The notes under the pieces are model-generated. The model saw only the letters and a program-made list of their open reading frames with translations. It searched no databases and had not been told where the DNA came from. The position numbers were made by a program, and so were the translations under genes. This document shows positions 3,989-57,755 of a stretch of 64,000 nt of DNA, piece after piece. Source of the stretch: an uncultured Candidatus Saccharibacteria bacterium (lineage in GTDB: Bacteria > Patescibacteriota > Minisyncoccia > SW-4-49-11); the NCBI GenBank assembly GCA_964633865.1, contig CAZWIJ010000007.1:20711-84710 (forward strand), given 5' to 3'. The first letter of the stretch is position 1; each line of letters starts with the position of its first letter.

Positions 3989-5179
3989 TTAAATTGCAAA
4001 TAAAAAGATTATAAATAAAAGAATATGTGGAAAGAAAATACTATTTACAAACATAGAATGTACCAAAATTAAAGCTATTCCAGAGATTGAAGCCAATGTC
4101 ATTGCTTTTTCTATTTTTAGTTTAGTTTCTAAAAATTTTTGAATCCAATCTAAAATTTTGCTAAATATCATTGAAATAAAAATTCCAAGCCCAATAATTC
4201 CACCTGTTAACCAAAGAGTCAATAAACTACTATCTCTTCCAGAAGCTGAGTTAAGGGAAGATTCTTTGATAGTCTGATATTTGATTGTATTATAACCTAT
4301 TCCTAAAATTGGTTTTTTTTCTATATCTTGTATTGTATCTAGCCAATTTTGGATTCTTAAGGAGGCTGTAACATCTACAGTGATGATTCCCATAACTCTT
4401 TCCTGTAAACGAGAATTAGATGAAATACCTATACTCATCAAAATCATCATAATAATCAAAGTTTTTTTTGAATAAAACAATGTCAAGACTGACATACCAA
4501 TAACAAAAGCTAATAATGCACTCCTAGAATAAGTTAGAAACAAAGCTATGAATATAATAGCACTGCCTGATAACCAAAATATAATTTGTTTTTTATTTTT
4601 TTTCCAATCCTCATCTTTGAGAGAAACTAAAACTCTTGACAATACCACCAATAAAGATAATCCAAGGAATCCACCTAAAAAATTTGGATCATACCAAGTT
4701 GAAAGCAATCTTCCTTGATGTGGATCCCAGCCATATTGTGCCATAAAAGAAAAATCTGGGAATAGTATTAATTGTAAGAATCCTAAAATAGAAAGAATAA
4801 CTCCTGTATAAAAAAAACTATTCCATATCCAAATCAAACCTTTTTCTCTATTTTTATCCAAAAAATCTATTACTGGAATAATAAAAGTTAAATAACTAAA
4901 TAATCTTAACCAATACAGAAAGGCTCCAATTTCTCCACTCGAAGAAATAATAAAACTCATGTTAAACAATAGACTAGCTAAAAGATAAAAAATAAAAATA
5001 AATAACCAAACCAAAATTGGAGCAAAAGGAATTTCTTCTTTTCTAATAATTTTATTTAAAAAATATATTCCTAGAATTCCAATCAAAACAAAATCTGTAG
5101 CTACTCCTAAACTACCAAATCTTGTAATTTGACCTGTAATTACAGTTATTATTAAGATTATAAATAGAATTTTTTGCAT
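3989..5179 (-). CDS. Polytopic membrane protein, O-antigen ligase-like.
   Basis: Multi-TM profile with a Wzy_C-like loop region (YSRSALLAFVIGM). Confidence 0.4.
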   Translation of the reverse strand: MQKILFIILIITVITGQITRFGSLGVATDFVLIGILGIYFLNKIIRKEEIPFAPILVWLFIFIFYLLASLLFNMSFIISSSGEIGAFLYWLRLFSYLTFIIPVIDFLDKNREKGLIWIWNSFFYTGVILSILGFLQLILFPDFSFMAQYGWDPHQGRLLSTWYDPNFLGGFLGLSLLVVLSRVLVSLKDEDWKKNKKQIIFWLSGSAIIFIALFLTYSRSALLAFVIGMSVLTLFYSKKTLIIMMILMSIGISSNSRLQERVMGIITVDVTASLRIQNWLDTIQDIEKKPILGIGYNTIKYQTIKESSLNSASGRDSSLLTLWLTGGIIGLGIFISMIFSKILDWIQKFLETKLKIEKAMTLASISGIALILVHSMFVNSIFFPHILLFIIFLFAI

Positions 5180-14965: not shown

Positions 14966-15136
14966 CTAATCTCTTATTAAAGTTAGTACTTCATTTATAA
15001 TTTCTTTATTCTTCAAATGAATTACTAAGTTGTATTTTTTACAATTAATTAATAAAATATGATCTATAATGGTAACACCATTATTTTGTGTTCTAATTGA
15101 CGTATTTGTTATCCCAAATTTTGAGACTTCTATCAT
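14966..15136 (-). CDS. Candidate 56-aa small protein (MIEVSKFGITNTSIRTQNNGVTIIDHILLINCKKYNLVIHLKNKEIINEVLTLIRD). It is not in the ORF track.
   Basis: Preceded by a near-consensus promoter on the minus strand (TTGACA at 15190..15195, TATAAT at 15166..15171) and followed by a hairpin terminator at about 14900..14932. No obvious SD. Confidence 0.25.
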   Translation of the reverse strand: MIEVSKFGITNTSIRTQNNGVTIIDHILLINCKKYNLVIHLKNKEIINEVLTLIRD

Positions 15137-15216
15137 ATAGTTTTAAAATGTACATTACAATAGAAATTATATCACAATAAGAGATTTTTGTCAATAGTAA
15201 TTTACATAAAATTTAT

Positions 15217-17599: not shown

Positions 17600-17860
17600 T
17601 TAATTATTGTTCAAGCTGTATTCTAATATCATTTTATCAATTAAAACTTTAGCTTCTTTTAAATTTTTCGCATGGAAGCATATTCCGCTCCCACCGAAAC
17701 ATTGATCATTCCATTTATCTTTATAGTGAGAAGCATATCCCACCCAAAAAAGATCTCTTTCTCGATCATAGGCAAGATCTACAACCTCACCCATAAAAAC
17801 AACCTCCCATTTCTCCAAATCATTGAAACTTTGTTCAATAATTTTGTCAAAATGATCCAT
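17600..17860 (-). CDS. Small Cys-containing protein (86 aa), paralog of 18044..18250.
   Basis: Shared W-E-[VL]-x8-L-x2-D-x4-LFW block. Own promoter (TTGACA, 17-nt spacer, TATATT, RBS GAGAGG) at about 17870..17930. Confidence 0.4.
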   Translation of the reverse strand: MDHFDKIIEQSFNDLEKWEVVFMGEVVDLAYDRERDLFWVGYASHYKDKWNDQCFGGSGICFHAKNLKEAKVLIDKMILEYSLNNN

Positions 17861-18043
17861 TTAAACCTCTCAATCAATAAGTGTACAAATTTAAATATAT
17901 CATCAATATTAGTTTTTGTCAATCTATATTTACTAAAATTTAATTTTTATATTTATATTAAAAAATATAAAATAAAAAAACAAGACATACTATATAAAGT
18001 GTGTCTTATCTTAAAATTAAATATAATTCTTAATTAAAATTTA

Positions 18044-18250
18044 TTATTCTCTAGAAGCTAAACAAGATTCTTCAAAAGTTTTATATGGCCCGAATACAGC
18101 TCCACATTCAAGCCAAAATAGGCTATTTTGGGTATCTTTATAAAGATTAAAGAAACCCAATTCTGTTATTAATTCCCAGTTTTGACAGTTTTTTAGACTA
18201 TCTTGAGTAATCTTTTCATCTAAACTTTCAGATTTATTTTTAGTTACCAT
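18044..18250 (-). CDS. Small Cys-containing protein (68 aa), paralog of 17600..17860.
   Basis: Consensus promoter TTGACA (18304..18309), 17-nt spacer, TATGAT (18281..18286). Hairpin terminator at about 18000..18030. Confidence 0.4.
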   Translation of the reverse strand: MVTKNKSESLDEKITQDSLKNCQNWELITELGFFNLYKDTQNSLFWLECGAVFGPYKTFEESCLASRE

Positions 18251-18375
18251 GTTAAATTTATATGATAAATTTACATACTTATCATATCTTATTTTAATAA
18301 TTTTGTCAATAGTAATTTACTAAAAATATTTTTAATTGTTTTTGATATATTAATTTTAATTATGTAGGTATAATC

Positions 18376-25747: not shown

Positions 25748-27067
25748 ATGAAAAATTTAGAAAACATTGATTCTATACAAGAAAAAAACGAAAATATAGA
25801 AAAAGAAGAAATAGTTGTTTATAAAGGTAATTCAAACAAAATAAAATTACAACTTGGGAATAAAGAAATAATACTTCAAAAAATAGGAAATGAATATATT
25901 ATAAATGATACTACAATCGATAGAAATAAGGCAAGAAAAATACTTTCTATAGGAGAAGGTCAAGAACTTATTTTAGGTAGAATGACAGAGGGTTTATTTC
26001 AAGATGATACTGTTTCTAAAAAGCACTGTAAAATTAGTTTGAATCAAGGAGAATTAACAATAGTAGATCTAAATTCTAGAAATGGTACAAGTGTAGAGTT
26101 TGAAGATTCGGAGGATGTTAATAAAGAAACAGAAGAAATTGATATTATTGGATATAATGAAAAAGAAGATCCAACAAGGGACACATTAAAAGATTTTATC
26201 AAATATATGGAGGAGAATAAGGAAGATATATTGGATAAAATAAATTATAATTTACCATCATATGAAAAAAAGTATTCTGAATTAAATCTTGAAGCAGTAA
26301 AATTTAAATTATTAACAGATATTATTTACAATGACTTTTATTCACAAGGAGAAAGTAATTTTACAGAAAATAATCCAAAAGATCAAGAAAAATTTGAACA
26401 ATACGAAAAAAATTTAAAGTTTATAATAAACTTGATGACACAACAAGATGAATATCAGAAGAAGTTTAAGATTGTAGATAGTAGTGGATGGTATTATGCC
26501 CTTGTAAATTCAGATGAAAGATTAGGATCTGATAATGCAGGTGATTTGGGAAGGATTTATCTAAATGTAGCTCCAGAAGTTAGTGTGGGTGTCTTTAATC
26601 AATTAATTCAAAAAGGTGTTAATCAAGAGATATCATTCCAAACAAAAATATCCAAATCAGGAGATTCAAATTCATTTAACAGAGTAGATAAAATAGTTTT
26701 ATATTTTAAGCCAGAAGATTCAGCAAATATTAAGTCATTAGTTCAAGAAATTTATAATAAAAGGGAATCAGTTTTTATAAATCAGACCCCTAGATTTTCT
26801 CAATCTATAAATAATTATAATGGAAAAATTATGAATGGAGTTAGTTTTGGACAAGAACCAATAAATCGTACAAAGAATGAAATTAGTTTTGGTGAAATAA
26901 GATCAAGAATGCTAGCTACTATAGCAAAAGATGTTTTGGCTGGAAATAATGACAAAGATAATATAAAAGAAAAATTTAGAAAAATATGTTCAAAATTTGG
27001 AGTCGATTCAGAAAACCCTGCATTTAATAGTAACAATAACTCTTTTAATAATTTTAAAACAAACTAA
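25748..27067 (+). CDS. FHA domain protein with an uncharacterised ~300-aa C-terminal region.
   Basis: FHA signature GEGQELILGR...VSKKHCKISL...LTIVDLNSRNGTSV. Confidence 0.65.
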   Translation: MKNLENIDSIQEKNENIEKEEIVVYKGNSNKIKLQLGNKEIILQKIGNEYIINDTTIDRNKARKILSIGEGQELILGRMTEGLFQDDTVSKKHCKISLNQGELTIVDLNSRNGTSVEFEDSEDVNKETEEIDIIGYNEKEDPTRDTLKDFIKYMEENKEDILDKINYNLPSYEKKYSELNLEAVKFKLLTDIIYNDFYSQGESNFTENNPKDQEKFEQYEKNLKFIINLMTQQDEYQKKFKIVDSSGWYYALVNSDERLGSDNAGDLGRIYLNVAPEVSVGVFNQLIQKGVNQEISFQTKISKSGDSNSFNRVDKIVLYFKPEDSANIKSLVQEIYNKRESVFINQTPRFSQSINNYNGKIMNGVSFGQEPINRTKNEISFGEIRSRMLATIAKDVLAGNNDKDNIKEKFRKICSKFGVDSENPAFNSNNNSFNNFKTN

Positions 27068-27462
27068 TCAATCCCCTCTAATATATTAGGAAAAAATTTG
27101 ATCCAAGCTTTTTTATTAGATTTATCAATAATAATACAAATAGCATCAATATAGATATCCTCAGAAAGATATCTATGTTTTTGTAAATAAATTCTAATTC
27201 CGATAGAAAGCTTCTTTAATTTACTTTTTGTAATGTTATACACAGGGAAATTATCTTTATCAACAAGTTGTCCACAATTATACACAGACTTAACTTCAAT
27301 AAAATGGAGAAAACCATCTTTTTTGGCTATAATATCTAATTCAGCTAATTTACCTAAGTGTACATTTCTATCTAAAATTTCAAATTTTTTGGAAATCAAA
27401 TATTTAATTGCTAAATTCTCCCCTATATCACCTTTGGATTTGTTAGAATTTTTACTGTACAT
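27064..27462 (-). CDS. YraN/UPF0102 family endonuclease-like protein.
   Basis: GDIGENLAIKYL...ILDRN...GELDIIA...FIEVK matches the UPF0102 pattern. Confidence 0.7.
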   Translation of the reverse strand: MYSKNSNKSKGDIGENLAIKYLISKKFEILDRNVHLGKLAELDIIAKKDGFLHFIEVKSVYNCGQLVDKDNFPVYNITKSKLKKLSIGIRIYLQKHRYLSEDIYIDAICIIIDKSNKKAWIKFFPNILEGID

Positions 27463-28708
27463 AAGTTTTTTTGACTAGATAATACATCCAAAACATTAAA
27501 CAAGCTAATAAAATAAATAAACCAATAATTCCATTTTCGGTTAAAATAAGTAAAGACAAATTATGTACAGGTTGTAATTGCCAAAACTCTAAGTTTTGAC
27601 TTTGTAATCCTAGTATAAATTGTTTAGTACCAATTCCATTAAACAGATTAATATAGAAAACTTCAAAAGATTCTTTCAGATAAAAAACTCTTTGAAATGC
27701 ACTTTGAGAATTGTTTAGAGAAAACAATATAAAATTTATACTAGAAAAGAAAATACTAAAAATAATGAAAAAAATTAGATCAAAATACTTTTTAAAATGT
27801 TCTATGTGGAACATATCCTTAGAAAATACTTGTGTCAATATCTTTTTGATGATAAAAATAAATATTAGAAATCCAGAAAGTATATAAATTGATTTAGAAA
27901 AAGATAAGATAATCATTAATATACAAAAAGCTAAAAGAATGTTACTTTGATATTTTTTTAAATCTAATTTAAAATCAGATATTGATACTAAGATAGCTAA
28001 AAAAGTTAGTAAGAGACTTTGATTGAATGTCCATAAATAATGATCAACTTGACTAATTATAATCAGAGTTAAAAATATAAACCAAGATGCTAATTTTCGA
28101 TTTGAATTGTATATTAAAAAAATAATACCCATCAATCCTGTAAAAGCTAAAATGTTGGGGTGTGGAAAAGTTCCATAACCTCTAATCAAAAAATTATCTC
28201 CAAAGTTTAATTTAGCTATTCCAACCATATCTCTATTAAATACTGATTCTGTAATTATAGGTAAATTTAGATTTTTCTGTAAAATAAATTGTGTAATTAA
28301 AATAAAAAATTGACTAAATAATGCTATAAAGAATCCATTTAAAATATAAATTATTTTTTGTGTGTTAATAAGATAAGTTCCTAAATAAACAATTCCCAAT
28401 AATCTTAATATTTGATAAAAAGATAATAAAGGATAAGTATCATTAAAAACTTGTCCAAATAGAATTATAAATATTATAGATACAAATGGATTTAATAACT
28501 TTATTTTTTTTATTTTAAAGATATTGAAAAAAATAATTATCGCTATTACAATATCGCTAAAATTTAAATATTCCGTGAGAAAGTAATTTGGTCTTCCATT
28601 TATATAATATTCTAGAATAAGAATTCTTATATTATAAACAATTGTGCCTCCTAAAATCCAGTATAATAAATCATCTAAACTAAGTTTTTTATTAAAAATA
28701 TCTTTCAT
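27452..28708 (-). CDS. Polytopic membrane protein, O-antigen ligase-like.
   Basis: Ten or more TM segments with Wzy_C-like organisation, the third member in this window. Confidence 0.4.
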   Translation of the reverse strand: MKDIFNKKLSLDDLLYWILGGTIVYNIRILILEYYINGRPNYFLTEYLNFSDIVIAIIIFFNIFKIKKIKLLNPFVSIIFIILFGQVFNDTYPLLSFYQILRLLGIVYLGTYLINTQKIIYILNGFFIALFSQFFILITQFILQKNLNLPIITESVFNRDMVGIAKLNFGDNFLIRGYGTFPHPNILAFTGLMGIIFLIYNSNRKLASWFIFLTLIIISQVDHYLWTFNQSLLLTFLAILVSISDFKLDLKKYQSNILLAFCILMIILSFSKSIYILSGFLIFIFIIKKILTQVFSKDMFHIEHFKKYFDLIFFIIFSIFFSSINFILFSLNNSQSAFQRVFYLKESFEVFYINLFNGIGTKQFILGLQSQNLEFWQLQPVHNLSLLILTENGIIGLFILLACLMFWMYYLVKKTYVQ

Positions 28709-33106: not shown

Positions 33107-35656
33107 TTAAATAATTTTTTTCAAATCACTAATCCAATTTATAGCTTGAAGAGGAGTAATATTATTAAGATCTAAATTTTTAATTTTTTCTGATAAAATA
33201 CTTAATTTAGGATCAGGAGTATTATTTATAACTTGAGGTTTTTCTAATAGAGAGGGTTGAAATTTAGATTTCTTAGCCTCATAATTGAGCAAAATATTAT
33301 TAGCATTTTGGATAATTTCTTCAGGAAATCCAGCTAATTTGGCAATAGCAATACCAAAACTTTTGTCAATACCACCTTTTTCAATTTTTCTCAAAAATAA
33401 TATTTCATTTTTATTTTCCTCTACTAAAACCTTATAATTAACAATTCCTTGGCATAAATTTTCTAGCTCTAATAATTCATGATAATGAGTTGCAAAGATT
33501 GTTTTTGCTCCAATTTTATTATGAATATATTCAGAAATTGCTTTTGCAATACTCATACCGTCAAAAGTAGATGTTCCTCTACCAACTTCATCTAAAATAA
33601 TCAAACTTCTGTCTGTGGCAAAATTCAAAATTTGAGCTACCTCAATCATCTCTACCATAAAAGTACTTTGTCCTTCACTCAAATTATCTGAAGCTCCTAT
33701 ACGAGTAAAAATTCTGTCAACAATACCAATCTTAGCTTCACTTGCAGGAACAAAACAACCTATTTGAGCCATTAAGACAATAAGAGCAACTTGACGGCTA
33801 TAAGTAGATTTTCCAGCCATATTAGGGCCAGTAATTAGCATAAATGAATGATCTGTATCATTAAGTAAAGTGTCATTACTAATATAATCTCCATCCAAAA
33901 TTTTTTCTATCACCGGGTGTTTTCCATTTTTTATATTTATAATTTTATCATCTATAATAATAGGTTTTACATAATTATTTTCTATACTTAGTTTCGCAAA
34001 TCCTTGGATTATATCTAAATAAGCAATGTACTTTGCTATTTTTTGCAAAGAAGGTATAAATTCTAAAGTATAACTTGTTAATTCTTGAAAAACATCTAAT
34101 TCTACCTGAAGCAACTTTTCTTCTGAGACTAAGATTTTTTCTTCAAAAGCTTTAATTTCTTCAGTGATAAATCGTTCACCATTTGCTAGAGTTTGCTTCT
34201 TGATATAATGATTTGGAACTTTTTCTAGATTTGATTTACTGATTTCAATATAATACCCAAAGACTTTATTAAATCCTATTTTTAGATTGTTAATTCCAGT
34301 TTCTAATTTTTCCTTTTCTTGAGTTTTTATTAACCAATCTTTTCCACCTCTTGATAATTCTATCAACTCATCAATATCTGATCTAAAACCTTTTTTTATA
34401 AACCCACCTTCTCTTGCTAAAAGTGGTAAATTATCTTGAAGTGCAGATTCTAATTTTTCTTTTAAATCTAGAGTTTTTTCTTTAAAACTGATAAAGGAGG
34501 ATTTATATTTATCAGGTATTATATCTATAAAGTTAGATGAATGCTGGAGAAAATCTCTTATTATTCCAAGATCTCTAGGACCAGAATTGAGTGAAGAAAT
34601 TTTGGCTATAATTCTTTCCAAATCAGGAGTTTTTTTTAGTTCATTTTGAAACAAAGATAGTTTATCTGCATTATTTTGGAACCAAATTATATCTGTTTGT
34701 CTCTTCTCAATCTTAGATTTATCTAGTAGGGGAGATAAAATCCATTTTTGTAATAATCTTTCCCCCATTTGATTTAGAGTATGATTTAGAATATCATAAA
34801 GAGATTTGTTTTTTGGTCCTGACTTACTAGGATAAATCAATTCTAAATTATTAATCGTATTTAAGTCTAACTTCATCATATCAGACTTAAGGAAACTTAA
34901 TGGTTTTTGGATATGTGATAAGTCGGTATGTTGGGTGTATTTAAAATAATTAAATAATGCTCCCAAAACCATTATTTTAGGATCTTCTCTTTTTATTCCA
35001 AAAACATCTAAGGTTTTAATCTTATAATACTCACATAATAATTCCCAAGATTTATCTAAATCAAAAGACCATTTGGACTCAAAAGATAATTTTATATTTA
35101 TATTTTTTAATTGTGGAATAATGTTTTTAAAATTTTTTTCATAAACAATAATTTCTTTAATTTTATAAATTGAAATTAGATCTATAAAATCATTAATATT
35201 GACTTTATCAACAAATAACTCACCTGTAGAAATATCTCCAATTGCAAAATAGACATAACTTTTTACTAAAAAAGCAGATATAATAAAATTATTAGATTTT
35301 TCTTGTAGAAATGCATCAATCATCACTGTTCCTGGTGTTATAACTTTGACAATCTCTCTTTTTACGATTCCTTTTGAAGCATTAGCTTTTTCTACTTGAT
35401 CACAGATTGCAACAGAATATCCCAATTTTATAAGTTTTGAAATATAATTCTCAGCAGAATGAAAAGGAACTCCACACATTGGAATTTCTCCATCAATTTT
35501 ATTTCTTCTTTTGGTCAAGGTAATATGTAATAAATTTGAAACTAAAATAGCATCTTGATCAAACATTTCATAAAAATCACCTAATCTAAAAAATACAATT
35601 TTATCAGGATACTCTTTTTTTATCTCCCAGTATTGAGACATCATTGGTGAGGACAT
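33107..35656 (-). CDS. mutS: DNA mismatch repair protein MutS.
   Basis: Walker A GPNMAGKSTY, DEVGRGTSTFDG, and N-terminal mismatch-binding region ...FFRLGDFYEMF. Confidence 0.95.
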   Translation of the reverse strand: MSSPMMSQYWEIKKEYPDKIVFFRLGDFYEMFDQDAILVSNLLHITLTKRRNKIDGEIPMCGVPFHSAENYISKLIKLGYSVAICDQVEKANASKGIVKREIVKVITPGTVMIDAFLQEKSNNFIISAFLVKSYVYFAIGDISTGELFVDKVNINDFIDLISIYKIKEIIVYEKNFKNIIPQLKNINIKLSFESKWSFDLDKSWELLCEYYKIKTLDVFGIKREDPKIMVLGALFNYFKYTQHTDLSHIQKPLSFLKSDMMKLDLNTINNLELIYPSKSGPKNKSLYDILNHTLNQMGERLLQKWILSPLLDKSKIEKRQTDIIWFQNNADKLSLFQNELKKTPDLERIIAKISSLNSGPRDLGIIRDFLQHSSNFIDIIPDKYKSSFISFKEKTLDLKEKLESALQDNLPLLAREGGFIKKGFRSDIDELIELSRGGKDWLIKTQEKEKLETGINNLKIGFNKVFGYYIEISKSNLEKVPNHYIKKQTLANGERFITEEIKAFEEKILVSEEKLLQVELDVFQELTSYTLEFIPSLQKIAKYIAYLDIIQGFAKLSIENNYVKPIIIDDKIINIKNGKHPVIEKILDGDYISNDTLLNDTDHSFMLITGPNMAGKSTYSRQVALIVLMAQIGCFVPASEAKIGIVDRIFTRIGASDNLSEGQSTFMVEMIEVAQILNFATDRSLIILDEVGRGTSTFDGMSIAKAISEYIHNKIGAKTIFATHYHELLELENLCQGIVNYKVLVEENKNEILFLRKIEKGGIDKSFGIAIAKLAGFPEEIIQNANNILLNYEAKKSKFQPSLLEKPQVINNTPDPKLSILSEKIKNLDLNNITPLQAINWISDLKKII

Positions 35657-35786
35657 AAGGTGTAATTAAGTCTATATATTAAATTTAGTTTAACATAAAA
35701 TTCAGAATATTTGAAACATGCATAAAAAAGAAATTTATTAACATTTATTTATTGACAAATTTATAATATCAAAGTATAATATATTT

Positions 35787-35938
35787 ATAATTATGTTACA
35801 TTCTATGATAAGTTGTTTGTAGTAACATAATTCTGTATAATACAATTTAATCCTTGTAAAATTACATGTAATTCAAACCTTGTAAACTGTAGTTTATTGA
35901 GTTTGATAAAAACAGAGCAAATGCTCTGTTTTTATTTT
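35787..35938 (+). ncRNA. Candidate ~150-nt sRNA with consensus promoter and terminator.
   Basis: TTGACA (35753..35758), 16-nt spacer, TATAAT (35775..35780). Two internal hairpins (TTATGTTAC/GTAACATAA and AATTACATGTAATT). Terminator AACAGAGCAAATGCTCTGTT plus T-run at 35912..35938. No ORF longer than 10 aa. Confidence 0.3.
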
Positions 35939-36039
35939 AAATATATAACTTTGGTTTGATGATATAATAGAATTAAATGGAAATTAATATTCAGTAAAAA
36001 TTTAATAGATATGAGCTTTTGATTAATTGATTAAAAAGT

Positions 36040-36180
36040 AAAAACCCCGAACACTATAAGTGGCGGGGCTTTAGTCAAACCATTTTTTGGTTTAATAACA
36101 GGTTTGACGAGGGGTTTGAGATTGGGCTTTACGATGCGACAGGTCGCCTTTGATAGGCTTCCTGTTTTTTTTAAAATTGG
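36040..36180. ncRNA. GC-rich structured element (candidate ncRNA) bounded by intrinsic terminators on both strands.
   Basis: Minus-strand terminator CCCCG-N14-CGGGG plus T5 at about 36040..36075. Plus-strand terminator ACAGG-N17-CCTGT plus T8 at about 36146..36178. Internal 8-bp stem GTCAAACC/GGTTTGAC. Local GC is far above the ~28% background. Confidence 0.3.
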
Positions 36181-36393
36181 TTTTTGCATACTATTAATTT
36201 ATTCTTGGGATAACATTTTTCACCAAGAACAGTTTAGATATAAAATTAGATTATATACAAACGGTCTCTGACGAAATAAATTTTATTTTTGTTTGGATTT
36301 GGATATATTAATTTATATATTTAATCCTTGTAGTGAATGATTTTGATTTACACTCTCCTCACTCACGATAATAGTATATCATAATATAGAATA

Positions 36394-36509
36394 TTTGTCA
36401 AGAGTAATTTACATAAAAACATAAAAAAGTTAATAAAAATACTTAATTTACTATATATAAGCTAATAAATTACAACAAAAACAGTCAGTTTGAAGTGATT
36501 TTTGTGAGT
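36394..36509. repeat. Direct repeat copy A (~116 bp, ~90% identical to 37325..37440) carrying a minus-strand promoter.
   Basis: Aligned by eye: TTTGTCAAGAGTAATTTACATAAAAA...GCTAATAAATTACAA.AAAAACAGTCAGTTT...GTGATTTTTGTGAGT. The minus-strand TTGACA lies at 36397..36402 with TATACT 18 nt downstream. Confidence 0.7.
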
Positions 36510-36586
36510 AAATTTATAAAAAATAAATAACAGGGTATACTAAAAAAGAAAAAGAGACTAAATTTAATTAGTCTCTTAAAATTTAA

Positions 36587-37231
36587 TTAGCCAACATAAT
36601 TTTGAAAAGATTCTTTCACGGTAGTCATATCGGCTCCGATGAAATTCAATCTTCCTAGACAATCGCTTGGATCAGTAAAAGATCCTCCTTGTTCGAGAAT
36701 ATCAACTCGGACACCGCTTGCCCCTTGGACAAAACGAATGTCTTGTTTGTTATCATTGAAGATAACATGATCGTATTTGCCAAAGCCTTTTACTTGAATT
36801 ACAAGTAGATCCGATAGCTTAGCATTTTCTCCAAGATACCAAGGGGTTATATCCATATTATTCACATGGATTGTGTTCCCGATTGTGGAACAATCAATAG
36901 ACACACTAGTAGTGCCCTTGTGGGCAAATAAGGTATCTATTTTTATAGAATCATTATTTCCTAAAACTACATTTACTAAATCTTTAGTTTTAAAACTAGG
37001 TTTACCTGTCCCGAAGTGGAAATCCGACATGGATTTTCCTCCTAGGGTAATGTAGTCCTGGACATTAACACCAGGGATAGTATCCCGAGTATCAATAGTG
37101 ATTTTATCCTGATGGTTCAGGTTTGTTCCAGGGATGATAATGTCATCCATCATTTTTATACCAATCTCATTAAAGTATTGGTGAACAGGTTTAATTGCTA
37201 CAACAGAATTGCCAATGTTTGAAATTTTCAT
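36587..37231 (-). CDS. Hypothetical 214-aa protein with atypically high GC and codon usage for this genome, flanked by ~116-bp direct repeats.
   Basis: ORF track. GC is visibly higher than the surrounding sequence, with CGG, GCC and CCC codons. Consensus promoter in repeat B: TTGACA (37327..37332), 17-nt spacer, TATAAT (37304..37309). Terminator AGAGACTAATTAAATTTAGTCTCT plus T-run at 36550..36586. Confidence 0.5.
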   Translation of the reverse strand: MKISNIGNSVVAIKPVHQYFNEIGIKMMDDIIIPGTNLNHQDKITIDTRDTIPGVNVQDYITLGGKSMSDFHFGTGKPSFKTKDLVNVVLGNNDSIKIDTLFAHKGTTSVSIDCSTIGNTIHVNNMDITPWYLGENAKLSDLLVIQVKGFGKYDHVIFNDNKQDIRFVQGASGVRVDILEQGGSFTDPSDCLGRLNFIGADMTTVKESFQNYVG

Positions 37232-37324
37232 AATAGATTCAATTTTTTTTAAAGAACATTTGTGAAATAAGATTTTTATTTAGAAATCATATTTACAATG
37301 GATATTATACACCATAACTCTAAT

Positions 37325-37440
37325 TTTGTCAAGAATAATTTACATAAAAATGTAAAAAAACTAATAAAAATATTTAATTTGTTATATATAAGCTAATAAA
37401 TTACAATAAAAACAGTCAGTTTAGGGTGATTTTTGTGAGT
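37325..37440. repeat. Direct repeat copy B (partner of 36394..36509) containing the promoter of 36587..37231.
   Basis: See copy A. The perfect TTGACA-17-TATAAT reads leftwards into the 214-aa gene. Confidence 0.7.
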
Positions 37441-37530
37441 GAATTATCTATGTGAATTAAAATTATAGTACTTAAAATACAAAAATTTGATTTTATCTTG
37501 TATTTCTGATATAATTCATATTAATTAAAA

Positions 37531-38013
37531 ATGCAATATTTTATGAGTATTCTTGAAATAGTCTTAATTAGTATATCTGTTATATCAATAGGTTTTGCTA
37601 CTTATTCTTTTTTACAAATTAGAGCTTTCACTCAAAAATTTAATCATATTTTTAAAACAGAAACTGGTATTATAGAAAATGCTGATCAATTGATTGATGC
37701 ATATTCTGAAAGATTTGAGTCATTAGGTTCTGATATAAAACAAATATTTGCTAAATTAGATAAACATGATATAATTATTGACAAAACTATTAAGAAAGTT
37801 GGTCTAAAAAGATTTAACCCTTTCAATGATATGGGAGGAGATACTAGTTTTATATTTGTAATGTTAGATTCCCTGGATAATGGTATTTTGGTGACAAATA
37901 TTACTATGAGAGATGGAAATAGAATTTATGCAAAAAAAATAGAAAAAGGAACTTCTGTCCTCGCCTTAAGCGAATACGAGCAAAGTGCTCTAAATGAAAT
38001 CATATCCAATTAA
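37531..38013 (+). CDS. Membrane-anchored hypothetical protein (160 aa).
   Basis: N-terminal TM helix. Located immediately upstream of infB. Confidence 0.4.
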   Translation: MQYFMSILEIVLISISVISIGFATYSFLQIRAFTQKFNHIFKTETGIIENADQLIDAYSERFESLGSDIKQIFAKLDKHDIIIDKTIKKVGLKRFNPFNDMGGDTSFIFVMLDSLDNGILVTNITMRDGNRIYAKKIEKGTSVLALSEYEQSALNEIISN

Positions 38014-44810: not shown

Positions 44811-45587
44811 TTATTCTATTTTATCTTCCCCAAATTTTTGGATGAACAAATTTTTAGTTTCCTCAGAAAGTTTTGAGTCGAGGTAAATTGTAAACCCAAC
44901 ATAATCAGGTAAATTCCCTTTGAATGATTCAAGAGACCTTAAATCTAAATCCCCCCCAACATGTTTAGGAAAATCTCCCTCATATGATTCAAGAGACCTT
45001 AAATTTAAATACCCTCCAACATGTTTAGGAAAATCTCCCTCATATGATTCAAGAGATTCTAAATTTAAACTCGCCCTAACATGTTTAGGAAAATCTCCCT
45101 CATATGATTTAAGAGATCTTAAATCTAAATCCCCCAAATGATAAACAATATCTCCAGATAAAGCTTCTTCTTTAGTAAAGCTAATCTGGTTTGGGTTACA
45201 TCCAAAAATGAAAACAAGATCTGTTCTTTTAGTATTTTCATCTTTAGAATCTAAAATCTCCTGTAGTCTAGGATCTCTCCCATAACCAAAGCCTTGAATC
45301 TTATTATCAATCTCATAAAGAAATCTCAATTCATCTTTATTAAGAGAAATTTTATTCTCCCATTTTTCATAAATTTGAGTTAGAAGTTTCATATCCGAGG
45401 CTTGTTTTTGGTATTCATCCGCAACAGAGCCAAATTCCTTAAATTTTTCTTCCAGTACAGGAAGAATATAAGGATCAAGGTTTTGCTTAGGAGCAATACC
45501 TCTTGGATTACATATTGGAAATGGTGATACAGTACTTTTCGTTCTTGTTTTGAAAACACAAGAATTTACTGTACCATCTTCACTCAT
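44811..45587 (-). CDS. Repeat protein with 20-aa LRR-like units (L-x-L-x-S-L-E-S-Y-E-G-D-F-P-K-H-V-G-G), paralog of 46133..46957.
   Basis: Four or five tandem 20-aa units. Conserved N-terminal block ...IFGCNPNQIS... and C-terminal ...ETKNLFIQKFG. Terminator CCGAGTA-AATTAA-TACTCGG at about 44768..44800. Confidence 0.5.
   Translation of the reverse strand: MSEDGTVNSCVFKTRTKSTVSPFPICNPRGIAPKQNLDPYILPVLEEKFKEFGSVADEYQKQASDMKLLTQIYEKWENKISLNKDELRFLYEIDNKIQGFGYGRDPRLQEILDSKDENTKRTDLVFIFGCNPNQISFTKEEALSGDIVYHLGDLDLRSLKSYEGDFPKHVRASLNLESLESYEGDFPKHVGGYLNLRSLESYEGDFPKHVGGDLDLRSLESFKGNLPDYVGFTIYLDSKLSEETKNLFIQKFGEDKIE
44911..45140. repeat. Near-identical 60-bp tandem DNA repeats (about 3.8 units) inside 44811..45587.
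   Basis: Units beginning AAGAGACCTTAAAT... at 44931, 44991, 45051 and 45111 differ by only a few substitutions. Confidence 0.8.
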
Positions 45588-45641
45588 TTCTTTTTATAAT
45601 TGCCCCATTTTGATAATGGAGAATAAAATCCAAACCTTAAC

Positions 45642-46010
45642 TCAAATAGGATAATTCGCATCAAGACAAGTTAGATAGTCTAACCAAGCCTGAAGGCTAT
45701 TAAATTGATCCTCAATAATCTGAGAATTTTTCTTGGTGATAAACTCTTTAGTTATTGGGATCTTACCATGACCTTGCTCAAATAAAATATCTTGTTCCAA
45801 TTTATAAGTTGAATAGGGGATATTCTCTGATTTGATAATATAAGTTTGGATAAATTCTTTTTGAAAATCTTCTTGATTCCAGATAGAAGAAATTTTTTCT
45901 ACAAAATTACTAATTCGGATAATAGGATCTTTGTGATCACTAAAACGAATAATTAACTCTTCTTCTGCAATAGATTTATTCCAGTCATATAAAAATTTAG
46001 CGAAACTCAT
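45642..46010 (-). CDS. Hypothetical protein (122 aa) inside the LRR-paralog locus.
   Basis: Own promoter (TTGACA at 46060..46065, 17-nt spacer, TATAAT at 46037..46042) nearly identical to the promoter of 46133..46957. Confidence 0.35.
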   Translation of the reverse strand: MSFAKFLYDWNKSIAEEELIIRFSDHKDPIIRISNFVEKISSIWNQEDFQKEFIQTYIIKSENIPYSTYKLEQDILFEQGHGKIPITKEFITKKNSQIIEDQFNSLQAWLDYLTCLDANYPI

Positions 46011-46132
46011 AGTTTTACCTGATAAAGTGCGAGTTCATTATATAATAATCTTATGTTTTTGTCAAGTTTTAATGACAAAAAGAAATATATTCCCAAACAA
46101 AAAACCGAGTAATTTAATACTCGGAATATATT

Positions 46133-46957
46133 TTAATTGAAGACTACTTTATCACCAAATTTTTGAATGAATAAATTTTTAGTTTCCTCGGAAAGTTTTG
46201 AGTTGAGAAAAATAAAATTATAGACATAATCAGGAAGATTACCTTGAAATGACATTAGATTTCGTAAATATAAACAATCACCAATATGCTTAGGAAGATC
46301 ACTTTTGAGGAATGAAATAGAGTCTAAAATTAAACTTGACCCAACATACTTAGGTAAATTGCCTTCGAAATATTGAAGAGATCTTAAATCTAAATCACTT
46401 CCAATGTATTCAGGGAAATTACTTTCGAAAAAGTCAAAATCAAAACATCCTAAATCTAAATCTAAATCTAAATCATACCCAACATACTTAGGTAAATTAC
46501 CTTTCATAAATCGAAGGGCTGGCAAACTTAAATGCAAGCCAACATATTCAGGTAAGTTACCTTTGAATGATTCAAGATAATTTAGATATACCTCTCCACA
46601 AACATATTTGGGTAAATTACCTTCGAATAATTCCAGCTCACGTAAAACTAAATCTCCCCAATGATAAACAATCTCACCAGAGATAGCTTCATCGTTAGTC
46701 AAGCTAATCTGGTTTGGATTACATCCAAAAATGTAACTCAAACCTGTTCTTTTAACATCCTCATCTTTAGAATTTAAAATTTCATTTATTGTTAGATCTT
46801 TTATATATCCAAAACCTTTAATTTTTTTCTCATACATTAAAATTAATTCTTTATTTCTTTCAAAAGAAAAGTTAGTTCTCAATCTAAAATAAATCTCAGT
46901 CAATAATTTAATATCAGAAGATTCTTCTTTGTAATTTAGACAAAACTCAGATTTCAT
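46133..46957 (-). CDS. LRR-like 20-aa-repeat protein, paralog of 44811..45587, with more diverged repeats.
   Basis: Shared N-terminal block and ...ETKNLFIQKFGD C-terminus. Duplicated promoter module at 46970..47030 and terminator module at 46095..46125. Confidence 0.5.
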   Translation of the reverse strand: MKSEFCLNYKEESSDIKLLTEIYFRLRTNFSFERNKELILMYEKKIKGFGYIKDLTINEILNSKDEDVKRTGLSYIFGCNPNQISLTNDEAISGEIVYHWGDLVLRELELFEGNLPKYVCGEVYLNYLESFKGNLPEYVGLHLSLPALRFMKGNLPKYVGYDLDLDLDLGCFDFDFFESNFPEYIGSDLDLRSLQYFEGNLPKYVGSSLILDSISFLKSDLPKHIGDCLYLRNLMSFQGNLPDYVYNFIFLNSKLSEETKNLFIQKFGDKVVFN

Positions 46958-47079
46958 AATCTTTGACTTTGGTAAAGTGCGAATTTATTATATAATAATC
47001 TTATATTTTTGTCAAGTTTTAATGACAGAAAAATAAAAAATCCCAATAATAAACTGAGACTTTTTATAATTTCATTGAT

Positions 47080-54050: not shown

Positions 54051-55154
54051 ATGATAAATAAAACATATTTTGATTTAACTAATCCAGAAAACAATATTCT
54101 TGATCTTTTAATAAGACAAAAAGATAATTTTGATTGCAATATAATTGATAAACAAGGTTTAGTTTACGAAGGGTTTAAATTAGCTAAAAGCGAACAAGGG
54201 AATAATTTTACAGTTTGTGATATAAGCTTTAAACAATCAACAACAGATCAAAAGTATCAGGCAAGATTAGTTTTTCGCAAAACTGATAAAAACTTTAAAG
54301 ATAGAAATGTTAGTAAAGGTAGTGATTTTGTAAGAATACCCTTTGATATAGGACAAAATGGATATAGAGAATTTTGGAAGATGATCTCCTTTCTTTACAA
54401 ATGGAAAGAAACGATTGATTTAGGTGAATTCGACGATTTTTTTGCTATAACAGAAAAAAGTTTAGCTGATATTTTGCCCCAAATATCAAGTTTAAGTAAT
54501 AAAGAGCTTGTTTTAACTAATCTTAAAAAATTGACTAAAGAAAATTTAGATAATATTGATAATTTAGTAAATATAACAAAACTAAAAAATGTACTTAATG
54601 AGTTCATATAAAATAAAGAAAACAATCAAGAAATTGAATTTTGGCAACCATTTTTAAAAAAATATTTTTGGATAATTCAACAGATTTTTTCTTCTCCTGT
54701 AAATTTATACGATAATGAGTTTTATGTTGGTGGGTTATCTCAAGGGAATAGAAAAGGTGGTAAATTTGTTGATTTTGTAGTAAGAGATATAATATCAAAA
54801 AACATTTCTATTATTGAAATAAAAACTCCTAAAAAGCAATTGGTATCAAAGATTGAATATGATAAAAGAAAAGGTATTTATTCAATGCATAAGGATTTAA
54901 TAGGTGCAATTTCTCAGGTATTAAATCAAAAAGACCAAATACAGAAGGATTTTAAATATGATAATAATGGAAAAGATTATATAGTACTTGATCCAAAATG
55001 TATTTTAATTATAGGAAATAAAGAAGAAATGAATGAAGATCAAAATTCATGTTTTGAATTATTTAGAAAAAATCAAAAGAATATTGATATTATTACTTTT
55101 GACGAACTTTTCAAAAGGATTGAATCTATTTTAGAAATATTTAAGAATGAGTAA
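54051..55154 (+). pseudogene. Shedu-like (DUF4263, PD-(D/E)xK nuclease) defense gene interrupted by a single in-frame TAA at 54609..54611.
   Basis: ORFs 54051..54611 and 54840..55154 share a frame and the 228 nt between them are stop-free. Read-through gives ...EFWQPFLKKYFWIIQQIF...GGKFVDFVVRDIISKNISIIEIKTPKK... (a D...EIK nuclease core) and a C-terminal ...IDIITFDELF. The family assignment is from memory of DUF4263. Confidence 0.45.
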
Positions 55155-56618: not shown

Positions 56619-57755
56619 TTATTTTTTTATTCTCAAATTTGTCACTAAATTACCCATAAAAATAAAGAAGAACATTCCAGATAAAATACCACCTATAATA
56701 TCTAGGTAAGGGACTGTTTCCATTAATAAGAATAAAGTATATATTCCAAGTGCCATCAAATAGATTTGGATCTTAGCTACTCCTAGCTTTAGTTTTATAT
56801 TTAATAAGTTAGATAAATATAGTGAGGTTATACTCTGAGATATAAATAAGATTATTAGATATAAAGCTAAAATTATTGCTCCTAGAGGGAATCCTAAAAT
56901 TGTTACCATCAAAGATATAGAAACAACAGGAATTAATATTATCAAAAAGAATCCTAAAAAGAAATTTTCTATATATTTTGTATTTGAATTTAGAGATTCT
57001 AGATTCTTTTCAATTTTTTTAGTAAACAATAAGTGTAATACTATTATTATTGTAGAAGCCCAAATAATTCTTAATACTAACAATCCTGAGATATTTAGTA
57101 AATTATTTTTTTCAGGTTCAAGTTCTTTTATTTTTAAACTATTATCTAGTGTTAAGTTAGATTCTAAATTAGTAGGTATTTGAGAATTTTCTGCCCAATA
57201 TTTTGTTCCTTTATTTATATTAGCATTATCAGATATTTCCAAGTTAGCTGATACAAGTTGGTTGTTTTCTCCATTTAAATTTCCATTTACAATTATATTC
57301 TCAGCTTTTAGATTTGTATTCCCTAAAATTGTCCCATCTATATTTATATTTTTAGCATAGATTAATGTATCTCCAGTAATTTCTGCATCATTTTCTATTG
57401 TGATTGTTTCTCCAAATATTATGGTTTCTCCATTGATTTTACTTGAGATTTTTATATCTTGCCCTGCAATTCTTAAATCTTCACCAATATTGGCATTGGT
57501 CTCTATAAATTGTCCAGCTAAATTTATGTCTTTTGTAATTTCTCCCTTGACATCAATATATTGTCCAGCTATAAATAAATCTCCATTAACTTTTGTATCA
57601 AAATCTATTTTTTCTCCTGCCAAATAAGTATTTCCTTCTATATCATCATTTATCTTAAATTCTTCGTCAGCTTTGAAAAAAGAAGCATAAGTTATATTAA
57701 TTCCAAGCATAAAAATTAATAAAGTGGCAATGATTTTATAAGTATAAGTTTTCAT
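56619..57755 (-). CDS. Bactofilin-domain (polymer-forming cytoskeletal, DUF583-like) protein with an N-terminal signal/TM segment and C-terminal TM region.
   Basis: Repeated beta-helix units (GDLFIAGQYIDVKGEI / INLAGQFIETNANIGEDLRIAGQDIKISSKINGETII). Confidence 0.55.
   Translation of the reverse strand: MKTYTYKIIATLLIFMLGINITYASFFKADEEFKINDDIEGNTYLAGEKIDFDTKVNGDLFIAGQYIDVKGEITKDINLAGQFIETNANIGEDLRIAGQDIKISSKINGETIIFGETITIENDAEITGDTLIYAKNINIDGTILGNTNLKAENIIVNGNLNGENNQLVSANLEISDNANINKGTKYWAENSQIPTNLESNLTLDNSLKIKELEPEKNNLLNISGLLVLRIIWASTIIIVLHLLFTKKIEKNLESLNSNTKYIENFFLGFFLIILIPVVSISLMVTILGFPLGAIILALYLIILFISQSITSLYLSNLLNIKLKLGVAKIQIYLMALGIYTLFLLMETVPYLDIIGGILSGMFFFIFMGNLVTNLRIKK

Follow-up and report, generated by a model that had tools for sequence, protein, structure and literature searches.

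The vsp, vlp and vpma loci of Mycoplasma are tandem multigene families with conserved promoter-bearing spacers, and their gene content changes by unequal recombination in a process of birth and death. Integron cassettes are promoterless, are bounded by attC hairpins and need an adjacent intI integrase, and the Correia elements of Neisseria are dispersed repeats, or miniature inverted-repeat transposable elements (MITEs), that carry promoters. At strong sigma-70-type promoters one finds UP elements or phased A/T tracts that curve the DNA, and abundant mRNAs have stabilizing 5' hairpins; rRNA P1 and the ompA 5' untranslated region (UTR) are examples. Bacteria of the candidate phyla radiation (CPR) are known mostly from metagenomes, and many of their genes are orphans. 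In the expression cassettes of Borrelia vmp and Anaplasma msp2, silent donor alleles are copied into a single expression site through upstream and downstream homology sequences (PMC4534519). Here we describe a locus in a 64-kb stretch from the genome of an uncultured CPR bacterium of the Parcubacteria (contig CAZWIJ010000007.1; the whole stretch is called the window below) in which a gene for a 214-aa protein, at 36587..37231 on the minus strand, lies between two direct repeats. We conclude, with a probability of about 0.65, that the repeats are a duplicated strong-promoter spacer in a locus of variable copy number, that the locus encodes an orphan protein family that is probably highly expressed, and that recombination at the spacers would account for the turnover of its genes. 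The locus is neither foreign DNA nor a mobile element.

This locus resembles the Mycoplasma loci in its tandem paralogues, its conserved non-coding 5' regions, its single conserved protein end and its divergent protein bodies, and also in that copy number and gene content vary between related genomes. It differs from them in that each gene comes with a full consensus promoter and a terminator of its own, that the conserved part of the protein is C-terminal, and that no switching was seen within the population; nor did we find a recombinase, a recombination site or a mutable tract here, or a signal peptide or lipoprotein signal. As with integron cassettes, single-gene units stand head to tail at one locus, with repeats between them and a content that varies among relatives, but here the repeated element is the promoter, attC-like symmetry was not found in the spacer, and there is no integrase. 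As with Correia elements, a repeat of ~120 bp supplies an outward-reading promoter. Unlike those elements and other MITEs, however, the spacer lacks terminal inverted repeats (the search gave nothing but AT-rich matches of 8-22 nt, which are at the level of noise, and no terminal arms), exists as two long copies in 64 kb, at one locus and in the same orientation, and is always at the equivalent position in relatives.

The window has a GC content of 26.3%. Its GyrB is 81-82% identical to proteins named as Candidatus Parcubacteria or Paceibacterota, and 60-65% identical to those of other Patescibacteria. The cassette locus sits between a divergent DUF4446 gene, beyond which lie infB, rbfA and nrnA, and mutS. 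We compared it with contigs from relatives, designated L010, L011, L015, L156, L157, L158, L159 and L160; L159 and L010 come from European Nucleotide Archive entry ERZ4210451, and L160 comes from Logan ERR14790933. Groundwater samples, among them JGI 3300007986 and 3300025035 and ENA ERZ17986946, contain the population of the window. According to IF2 identities, L157 is nearest to the window (95.6% at the nucleotide level), and L160 and L159 are about equally far (86-88%).

A repeat search of the window returned direct repeats of 121 nt at 36394-36514 (copy A) and 37325-37445 (copy B), with 89% identity and a spacing of 931, in agreement with the two flanking repeats of ~116 bp and ~90% identity described in the initial annotation. 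Their 40-nt core occurs exactly twice in 64 kb, against an expectation of zero; all copy counts given here for spacer and motif refer to the 64-kb window. Read on the minus strand, either copy ends at its 3' side in TTGACA. The repeat consists of ~115 bp upstream of and including the -35 hexamer; it includes neither the -10 boxes nor the leaders, which are not alike in the two units. To the promoter of the 214-aa gene, copy B (37325..37445, minus strand) contributes the upstream half: T-tracts near positions -73, -63 and -53, a GTAAATTAT box and a promoter-proximal TTGACA. Copy A (36394..36514, minus strand) contributes the upstream half in the case of a small-peptide gene. The spacer carries a GTAAATTAC box adjoining the -35. 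T-tract starts at -73, -62/-63 and -53 are kept in nearly all of the 8 spacers, from 5 lineages, that were compared, even where overall identity is only 60-70%. Because both copies occupy the equivalent positions in L157, the A/B duplication must be older than the split between the window and L157. The four spacers of these two genomes are mutually 87-92% identical, whereas the single spacer of L160 is 66-70% identical to all four, implying that the duplication arose in the ancestor of the window and L157. The repeats are two copies of the intergenic spacer, from terminator to promoter, of a small cassette locus, and not the ends of a mobile element.

Promoter B, at 37304..37332 on the minus strand, reads TTGACA-17-TATAAT and matches the consensus at 12/12 positions, with a predicted start near 37297; promoter A, at 36373..36401 on the minus strand, reads TTGACA-17-TATACT (11/12) with a TG extended -10 and a predicted start near 36366. 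Both promoters had been noted in the initial annotation, with copy B supplying the first and copy A carrying the second; each repeat holds the -35 only, and the -10 lies outside. We infer that copy B drives the 214-aa gene and copy A a conserved gene for a basic peptide of 30-36 aa. The leader of the 214-aa gene would be ~66 nt long (37232..37297, minus strand), with a weak 5'-terminal hairpin at ~37261-37297, and folding predictions place a 5'-terminal hairpin at the predicted +1 in all units tested. Downstream, at 36542..36577 on the minus strand, is an intrinsic terminator, AAGAGACTAA-N6-TTAGTCTCTT followed by a T-run, whose 10-bp stem at 36577..36552 bears out the strong hairpin terminator attributed to the gene. 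A matching hairpin stands 3' of every cassette gene in L010, L011 and L157. The locus has the consensus -35 and -10, the 17-bp spacer and the T-tracts phased at ~10 bp from -53 to -73 that are typical of strong sigma-70-type promoters, and, like the ompA 5' UTR and other abundant mRNAs, a predicted hairpin at +1 and a strong terminator. It departs from a classical UP element in that the conserved block reaches to ~-120.

A promoter-motif scan of genome and metagenome contig collections that do not include the source genome gave only single chance matches in unrelated organisms and one locus that was already among the relatives. Within the window, the promoter-proximal box ATGTAAATTACTNTTGACAAA has 4 occurrences against 0.08 expected, all on the minus strand and upstream of short units with their own terminators. 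The third copy (15187..15207, minus strand) and the fourth (18302..18322, minus strand, with 2 mismatches) are not accompanied by the long repeat; they precede a 56-aa and a 68-aa open reading frame (ORF), each with its own terminator. These short orphan ORFs, at 14966-15207 (-) and 17600-18322 (-), share the extended -35 box, and their codons show no C enrichment. Next after the 68-aa ORF comes an 86-aa unit that has a TTGACA promoter and a terminator of its own. A recurring GTAATTTAC-like 8-mer in the spacer was considered as an operator array and was dropped as post hoc, copy B showing no conservation of it.

We then come to the composition of the 214-aa gene, which had been called more GC-rich than its surroundings. 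That it is: among the 54 ORFs of the window, its GC (0.366, against a mean of 0.269 with sd 0.034) and its third-position GC, or GC3 (0.316 against 0.168, sd 0.036), are the highest. The first two codon positions are inside the range of conserved genes, and the excess is confined to one base: third-position C (C3) is 0.21, compared with 0.065 in other genes, while third-position G (G3) is 0.107 compared with 0.098. The enriched codons are TAC, CAC, ATC, TTC, AAC, GGC, GCC and ACC. Phe, Tyr, Ile and Asn codons end in C in 20/52 cases (38.5%), against 555/4151 in the background (13.4%; Fisher p = 6.7e-6), the top value in the window. The particular codons that the initial annotation had singled out, CGG, GCC and CCC, turned out not to be telling, as they are used once, twice and not at all, respectively; the signal lies in C-ending codons generally. 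The same bias is found in all paralogues and small downstream ORFs of L010, L011, L156, L157 and L160, and their neighbors do not share it. C3 is 0.16-0.26 in family members of other lineages and weaker only in the distant L015 copy (0.09), with neighboring genes at 0.02-0.08. Highly expressed genes of the AT-rich Buchnera show a preference for C-ending codons with no rise in G (PMC1636365). Since the excess is of C3 only and is common to family members, it points to codon selection linked to expression, rather than to foreign DNA; and since it persists across synonymous divergences (dS) above 1, it must be kept by selection. The higher GC of the 214-aa gene and of the small-peptide gene appears, then, to reflect a selected preference for C-ending codons, with very high expression as the most likely cause. 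By this codon evidence, the 214-aa gene is probably highly expressed, as one of the two earlier proposals had it.

Comparison with relatives also indicates that the gene is real and native, and under purifying selection. Orthologues of the same paralogue type, type 1, occupy the same locus in L010 and L011, with dS of 1.30-1.34 and a ratio of nonsynonymous to synonymous divergence (dN/dS) of 0.11-0.13; for mutS, the dS between the window and L010 is 1.15. The 214-aa gene or a relative of it adjoins DUF4446 in L011 and L157 and lies upstream of mutS in L010. L159, a contig ending at DUF4446, is very probably the left neighbor of L010.

The slot between the spacers is filled differently among the relatives: by an orthologue, by two tandem paralogues, by a paralogue of 30% identity, or by nothing, in which case there is a single spacer. 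L010 has a pair of paralogues, of 206 and 222 aa, whose bodies share ~35% identity; each is followed by the same terminator hairpin and a homologous promoter spacer, and after them comes the small ORF. Tandem paralogues are also present in L156. At the edge of the L010 array, in the gap that separates the -35 from the -10 in the first cassette's promoter (L159 1-60, L010 1-70), there is a GC-rich hairpin, CCCCGCCCTAAAGGGCGG, whose position is the exact break point of the two contigs, L159 and L010, and which may be a small GC-rich insertion element within an AT-rich genome. Against the window, L157 shows 94.6% identity over the flank that runs from dsbA to the -35 of copy B; similarity resumes at the terminator, with 87.3% identity over the stretch that takes in copy A and the small ORF. 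Enclosed by the L157 spacers is a gene without DNA similarity to the 214-aa gene; it encodes another paralogue type, with 30% protein identity, and it is frameshifted. The frameshift (5040-5110) splits the gene just ahead of its conserved C-terminal domain and is found in the L158 assembly as well; the codon bias is intact on either side of it, which implies that the inactivation is recent or that the frameshift is tolerated. In L160 (1-720) we find DUF4446, one spacer and the small ORF, with no member of the 214-aa family. On its DUF4446 side the single L160 spacer is colinear with copy B, and on the side of the small ORF it is colinear with copy A, which makes L160 an exact empty site. Given that cassettes occur in three of four deep lineages, and given the IF2 distances, their presence is the more parsimonious ancestral state, with loss in L160. 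The proposal that the locus behaves as a cassette is partly right: the content of the slot varies (L160 empty, L157 with another paralogue, L010 with two genes), but the content is not foreign. The gene is absent only in L160, and orthologues stand at the same locus in L010 with L159 and in L011.

These data suggest a mechanism. Each unit comprises a spacer with phased T-tracts, the GTAAATTAC box and TTGACA; a -10 of its own; a leader with a hairpin at the predicted +1; a coding region rich in C-ending codons; and a strong terminator. Being direct repeats, the spacers could recombine with each other or with related DNA, and the gene that they enclose could in this way be added, deleted or exchanged. 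Such recombination would explain why relatives have 0, 1 or 2 cassettes, and why the nearest relative has a different paralogue.

Several points weigh against this interpretation. The spacer recombination that it proposes is deduced from end states only, and 19 contigs from the population of the window, from many samples, are invariant in structure, with 0-2 single-nucleotide polymorphisms per 2 kb and no indels or inversions. In the comparison of the window with L157, identity is lower over the right flank (87%) than over the left (95%), and L157 has two extra genes that are absent from the window; a larger replacement, whose left edge just happens to fall at copy B, is possible. The spacer count covers 64 kb, in which both long copies are at the locus. 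The support for high expression consists of a codon pattern and predicted signals; translational selection is often weak in slow-growing bacteria with reduced genomes; and the 64-kb window contains no ribosomal-protein gene or other codon-reference gene. The 214-aa gene of the window also lacks the Shine-Dalgarno sequence seen in relatives: where L010 and L011 have GGAAGG, it has an A8 tract (37238-37256, minus strand), whose length does not vary across the 19 population contigs. Finally, an orthologue dS above 1 is near saturation, making the argument from vertical descent a rough one.

The initial annotation had offered, as its other proposal, a horizontally acquired cassette with foreign composition. 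In its fullest form this would hold that a circular or foreign molecule of spacer plus gene integrated at a resident spacer, by a site-specific or Campbell-type event, and so created the repeats. Some of the data invite such a view: the window equals L160, an apparent empty site with one spacer, plus 931 bp; in L157 the gene is another one, and its boundaries, at the -35 and the terminator, are sharp; and the GC of the 214-aa gene is the highest in the window. We nevertheless consider it unlikely. A C3-only excess common to all paralogues after dS > 1 argues for selection and not for foreign DNA that has yet to ameliorate, and the dS of the same-locus orthologues (1.3) is near that of mutS (1.15), with dN/dS of 0.11-0.13. 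We found no integrase or recombinase within ~10 kb of the locus, and neither the ORFs scanned nor the genes called around the locus gave such a Pfam match; the nearest tRNA is at a distance of 5.8 kb, and terminal inverted repeats are absent from the spacer. The family is limited to the clade, with no relatives in the viral, phage and plasmid collections IMG/VR, INPHARED and PLSDB, and loss in L160 is more parsimonious than gain. A higher GC content and flanking direct repeats need not imply horizontal transfer; here the split between C3 and G3, together with the relatives, settles the question.

Another possible reading is a switch for antigenic or phase variation, like those of Mycoplasma (Vsp/Vpma) and Borrelia (Vmp), in which programmed recombination at the conserved flanks would, at high frequency, change the variant that is expressed. 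Some observations fit it: variable bodies lie between conserved 5' and 3' homology blocks that are natural crossover sites, as in Borrelia vmp and Anaplasma msp2; the proteins combine a variable N-terminal body with a conserved C-terminal domain; L010 and L156 have tandem paralogues; and cassette conversion in Borrelia works through just such upstream and downstream homology sequences (PMC4534519). Even so, we regard a switch as very improbable. The 19 population contigs show no alternative arrangements, so that the differences seen are between lineages only, and the complete promoter on every cassette means that there is no silent archive like that of Borrelia and Anaplasma. There is also no nearby recombinase, no signal peptide or lipobox, and no mutable homopolymer in the promoter spacer region.

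If copy B is the promoter spacer of the 214-aa gene, copy A stands before a much smaller unit. Its transcript, predicted at 339 nt, would begin with a leader at 36190..36366 (minus strand). In this leader, a 5'-terminal hairpin (36333-36366) precedes a 14-nt box (36319-36332) and, further on, a conserved hairpin (36202-36229) that holds GGTGA and an upstream ORF of 5 codons. The leader is followed by the ORF of a small basic peptide (36031..36189, minus strand; 52 aa in the window), of which only the first ~35 codons (36085-36189) are conserved, with (V/I)KP repeats. Two further hairpins, on the minus strand, complete the unit: GTCAAACC...GGTTTGAC at 36074..36108, around the ancestral stop codon of the small ORF, and the intrinsic terminator at 36028..36072, with a GCCCCG...CGGGGT stem and a U-run; each shows two compensatory pairs in L160. 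The peptide begins MQKPILKKTGSLSKATCRIVKPNLKPLVKPVIKPK... in the window and reads MEKPILKSTGSLSKATSRIVKPSKKPLVKPVIKPKK in L157 (5649-5759), MEKPILKKTGSLTKATARLVKPVVKPIPKK in L010 (2140-2232) and MEKPVRKNKGCLEKGTARLFNLNLNPPIKPLHKR in L160 (160-264, minus). In the relatives it stops after 30-36 aa. The isoelectric point (pI) is ~10.9 in the window, and the peptide remains strongly basic throughout (10.8-10.9), with KP repeats. The copy in the window has lost its stop codon to a 5-nt deletion and so runs on into the terminator; there, too, a stop codon separates the main ATG from an upstream ATG that follows a Shine-Dalgarno sequence. A homologue search with the 52-aa ORF returned only the self-match. 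The small ORF is the element of the locus that stays constant, kept even where there is no cassette gene.

The initial annotation saw in this area (36040-36180) a GC-rich structured region crossed by a leftward transcript. The structure is there, in the form of conserved 3' hairpins, but the region also contains the conserved small ORF. The transcript might instead be a structured non-coding RNA, with the ORF an artefact. Its fold has a z of -5.8, and six base pairs in the stop-codon hairpin and terminator have changed in a compensatory manner across four lineages; moreover, no Shine-Dalgarno sequence lies directly ahead of the conserved ATG, and in the window the upstream start and the stop codon are both altered. 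We doubt this explanation, for the frame is kept in four lineages, with indels inside it of 12 and 6 nt, synonymous differences affect more codons than nonsynonymous ones do (7:5, 8:4 and 10:4), and one Ser codon has changed from AGC to TCT. The peptide also stays basic with its KP repeats, its C-ending bias is like that of the cassette genes, and no Rfam family matches: searches of the whole window at gathering thresholds, and of 35650-37560 in E-value mode, gave only two tRNAs elsewhere and chance-level matches. RNA and peptide roles of the copy-A transcript are in any case compatible with each other.

Between this unit and mutS, and divergent from mutS, is a candidate small RNA (sRNA) at 35752..35935 on the plus strand, tentatively ~150 nt long (35787-35935). 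Its TTGACA-17-TATAAT promoter, a perfect match to the consensus, is at 35752-35780, and the unit closes with a bidirectional terminator (35911-35935). No ORF of at least 20 aa lies before the terminator, the fold has a z of -5.5, and Rfam gives no match. The element is 88% identical to its counterpart in L010, including promoter and terminator. A 14-mer within it, AUUUAAUCCUUGUA (35845-35858), is perfectly complementary to the box at 36319-36332 in the small-peptide leader, and the 14 bp are preserved in L010 though both partners have changed.

What the cassette genes encode is a small and isolated family. Matches to the 214-aa protein were limited to four 90%-identity clusters among 5.8 billion, and a profile search of 1.84 billion representatives gave four matches, two of them new; the family thus has ~7 sequences, all within one clade. 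There are at least 5 paralogue types in that clade, with mutual identities of ~30-37%. No credible match to Pfam, PHROGs, PADLOC or PDB was found for the 214-aa protein or its relatives, with single sequences or profiles, and a match to yeast uL6 (E = 0.009 over 36 residues) was judged spurious. An AlphaFold2 model built from seven sequences (predicted local distance difference test score 78.6, predicted template modeling score 0.81) is all-beta with one short C-terminal helix. As the initial annotation supposed, the protein is beta-rich, without a signal peptide or a known motif; no family protein has a hydrophobic segment, a signal peptide or a lipobox. A variable N-terminal part of ~155 aa is joined to a conserved C-terminal part, in which the last ~55 residues follow the pattern FNDxxQDxRFVQGxxxVRVDxxEQGGSFxDxxDYLGRLxFxGAD across paralogues. 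Between paralogues this block is 72-86% identical as protein and 67-83% as DNA, with a proportion of synonymous differences (pS) of 0.5-1.0; these DNA values imply purifying selection and not recent gene conversion. The protein appears to be soluble and all-beta, with a variable body and a conserved C-terminal module; our low-confidence picture is of an abundant protein, soluble or self-assembling, in which an interaction module stays constant.

Foldseek gave no significant match to the model, its weak top matches being beta-roll proteins. The RTX or beta-roll substrates of type I secretion have GGxGxDxUx nonapeptide repeats. Such repeats were rejected for this family, as none of its 7 members has a GG.G.D match. 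Bactofilin (PF04519) was rejected too, with no Pfam match at E <= 5 in any member and an hhalign probability of 0.1% against the protein of the window that has a bactofilin domain. That protein (378 aa; 56619-57755, minus strand) is itself a marginal match to the domain.

The locus joins sequence signs of very high expression with a rapid turnover of gene content between close relatives, and it gives a concrete example of strong-promoter architecture in CPR bacteria. The undescribed protein family and the small basic peptide are probably major components of the cell, or else interaction factors, in one Parcubacteria clade. A more speculative extension, which we think improbable as a whole, is that the spacers could serve as a recombinase-independent exchange site, swapping the variable body of a very abundant beta-protein that keeps a constant C-terminal docking domain, in Parcubacteria of episymbiotic type; envelope, host-contact or phage-interaction roles would be possible. 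The basic peptide would be co-expressed, and its leader would be targeted by the sRNA through the 14-nt duplex that compensatory change has kept.

A second pair of tandem paralogues (44811-47053, minus strand; 258 and 274 aa, no Pfam match) has duplicated promoter regions (84 nt at 85% and 62 nt at 89%) and internal 60-nt repeats, implying that tandem duplication including the promoter recurs in this genome. In L010 (2349-5131) and L157 (5874-8235), one or two genes of 86-87 aa lie between the small ORF and mutS, as does a gene for a 675-687-aa protein with a faint calpain-like (Peptidase_C2) signal; these genes are absent from the window, which implies that the interval is prone to rearrangement. 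Elsewhere in the window, a 104-aa fragment at 54840-55154 (+) matches the C-terminal domain of Shedu SduA, and 25748-27067 (+) encodes an FHA and HopA1-like protein. Finally, three Wzy_C (O-antigen ligase-like) paralogues are present, at 886-2103, 3989-5179 and 27452-28708.

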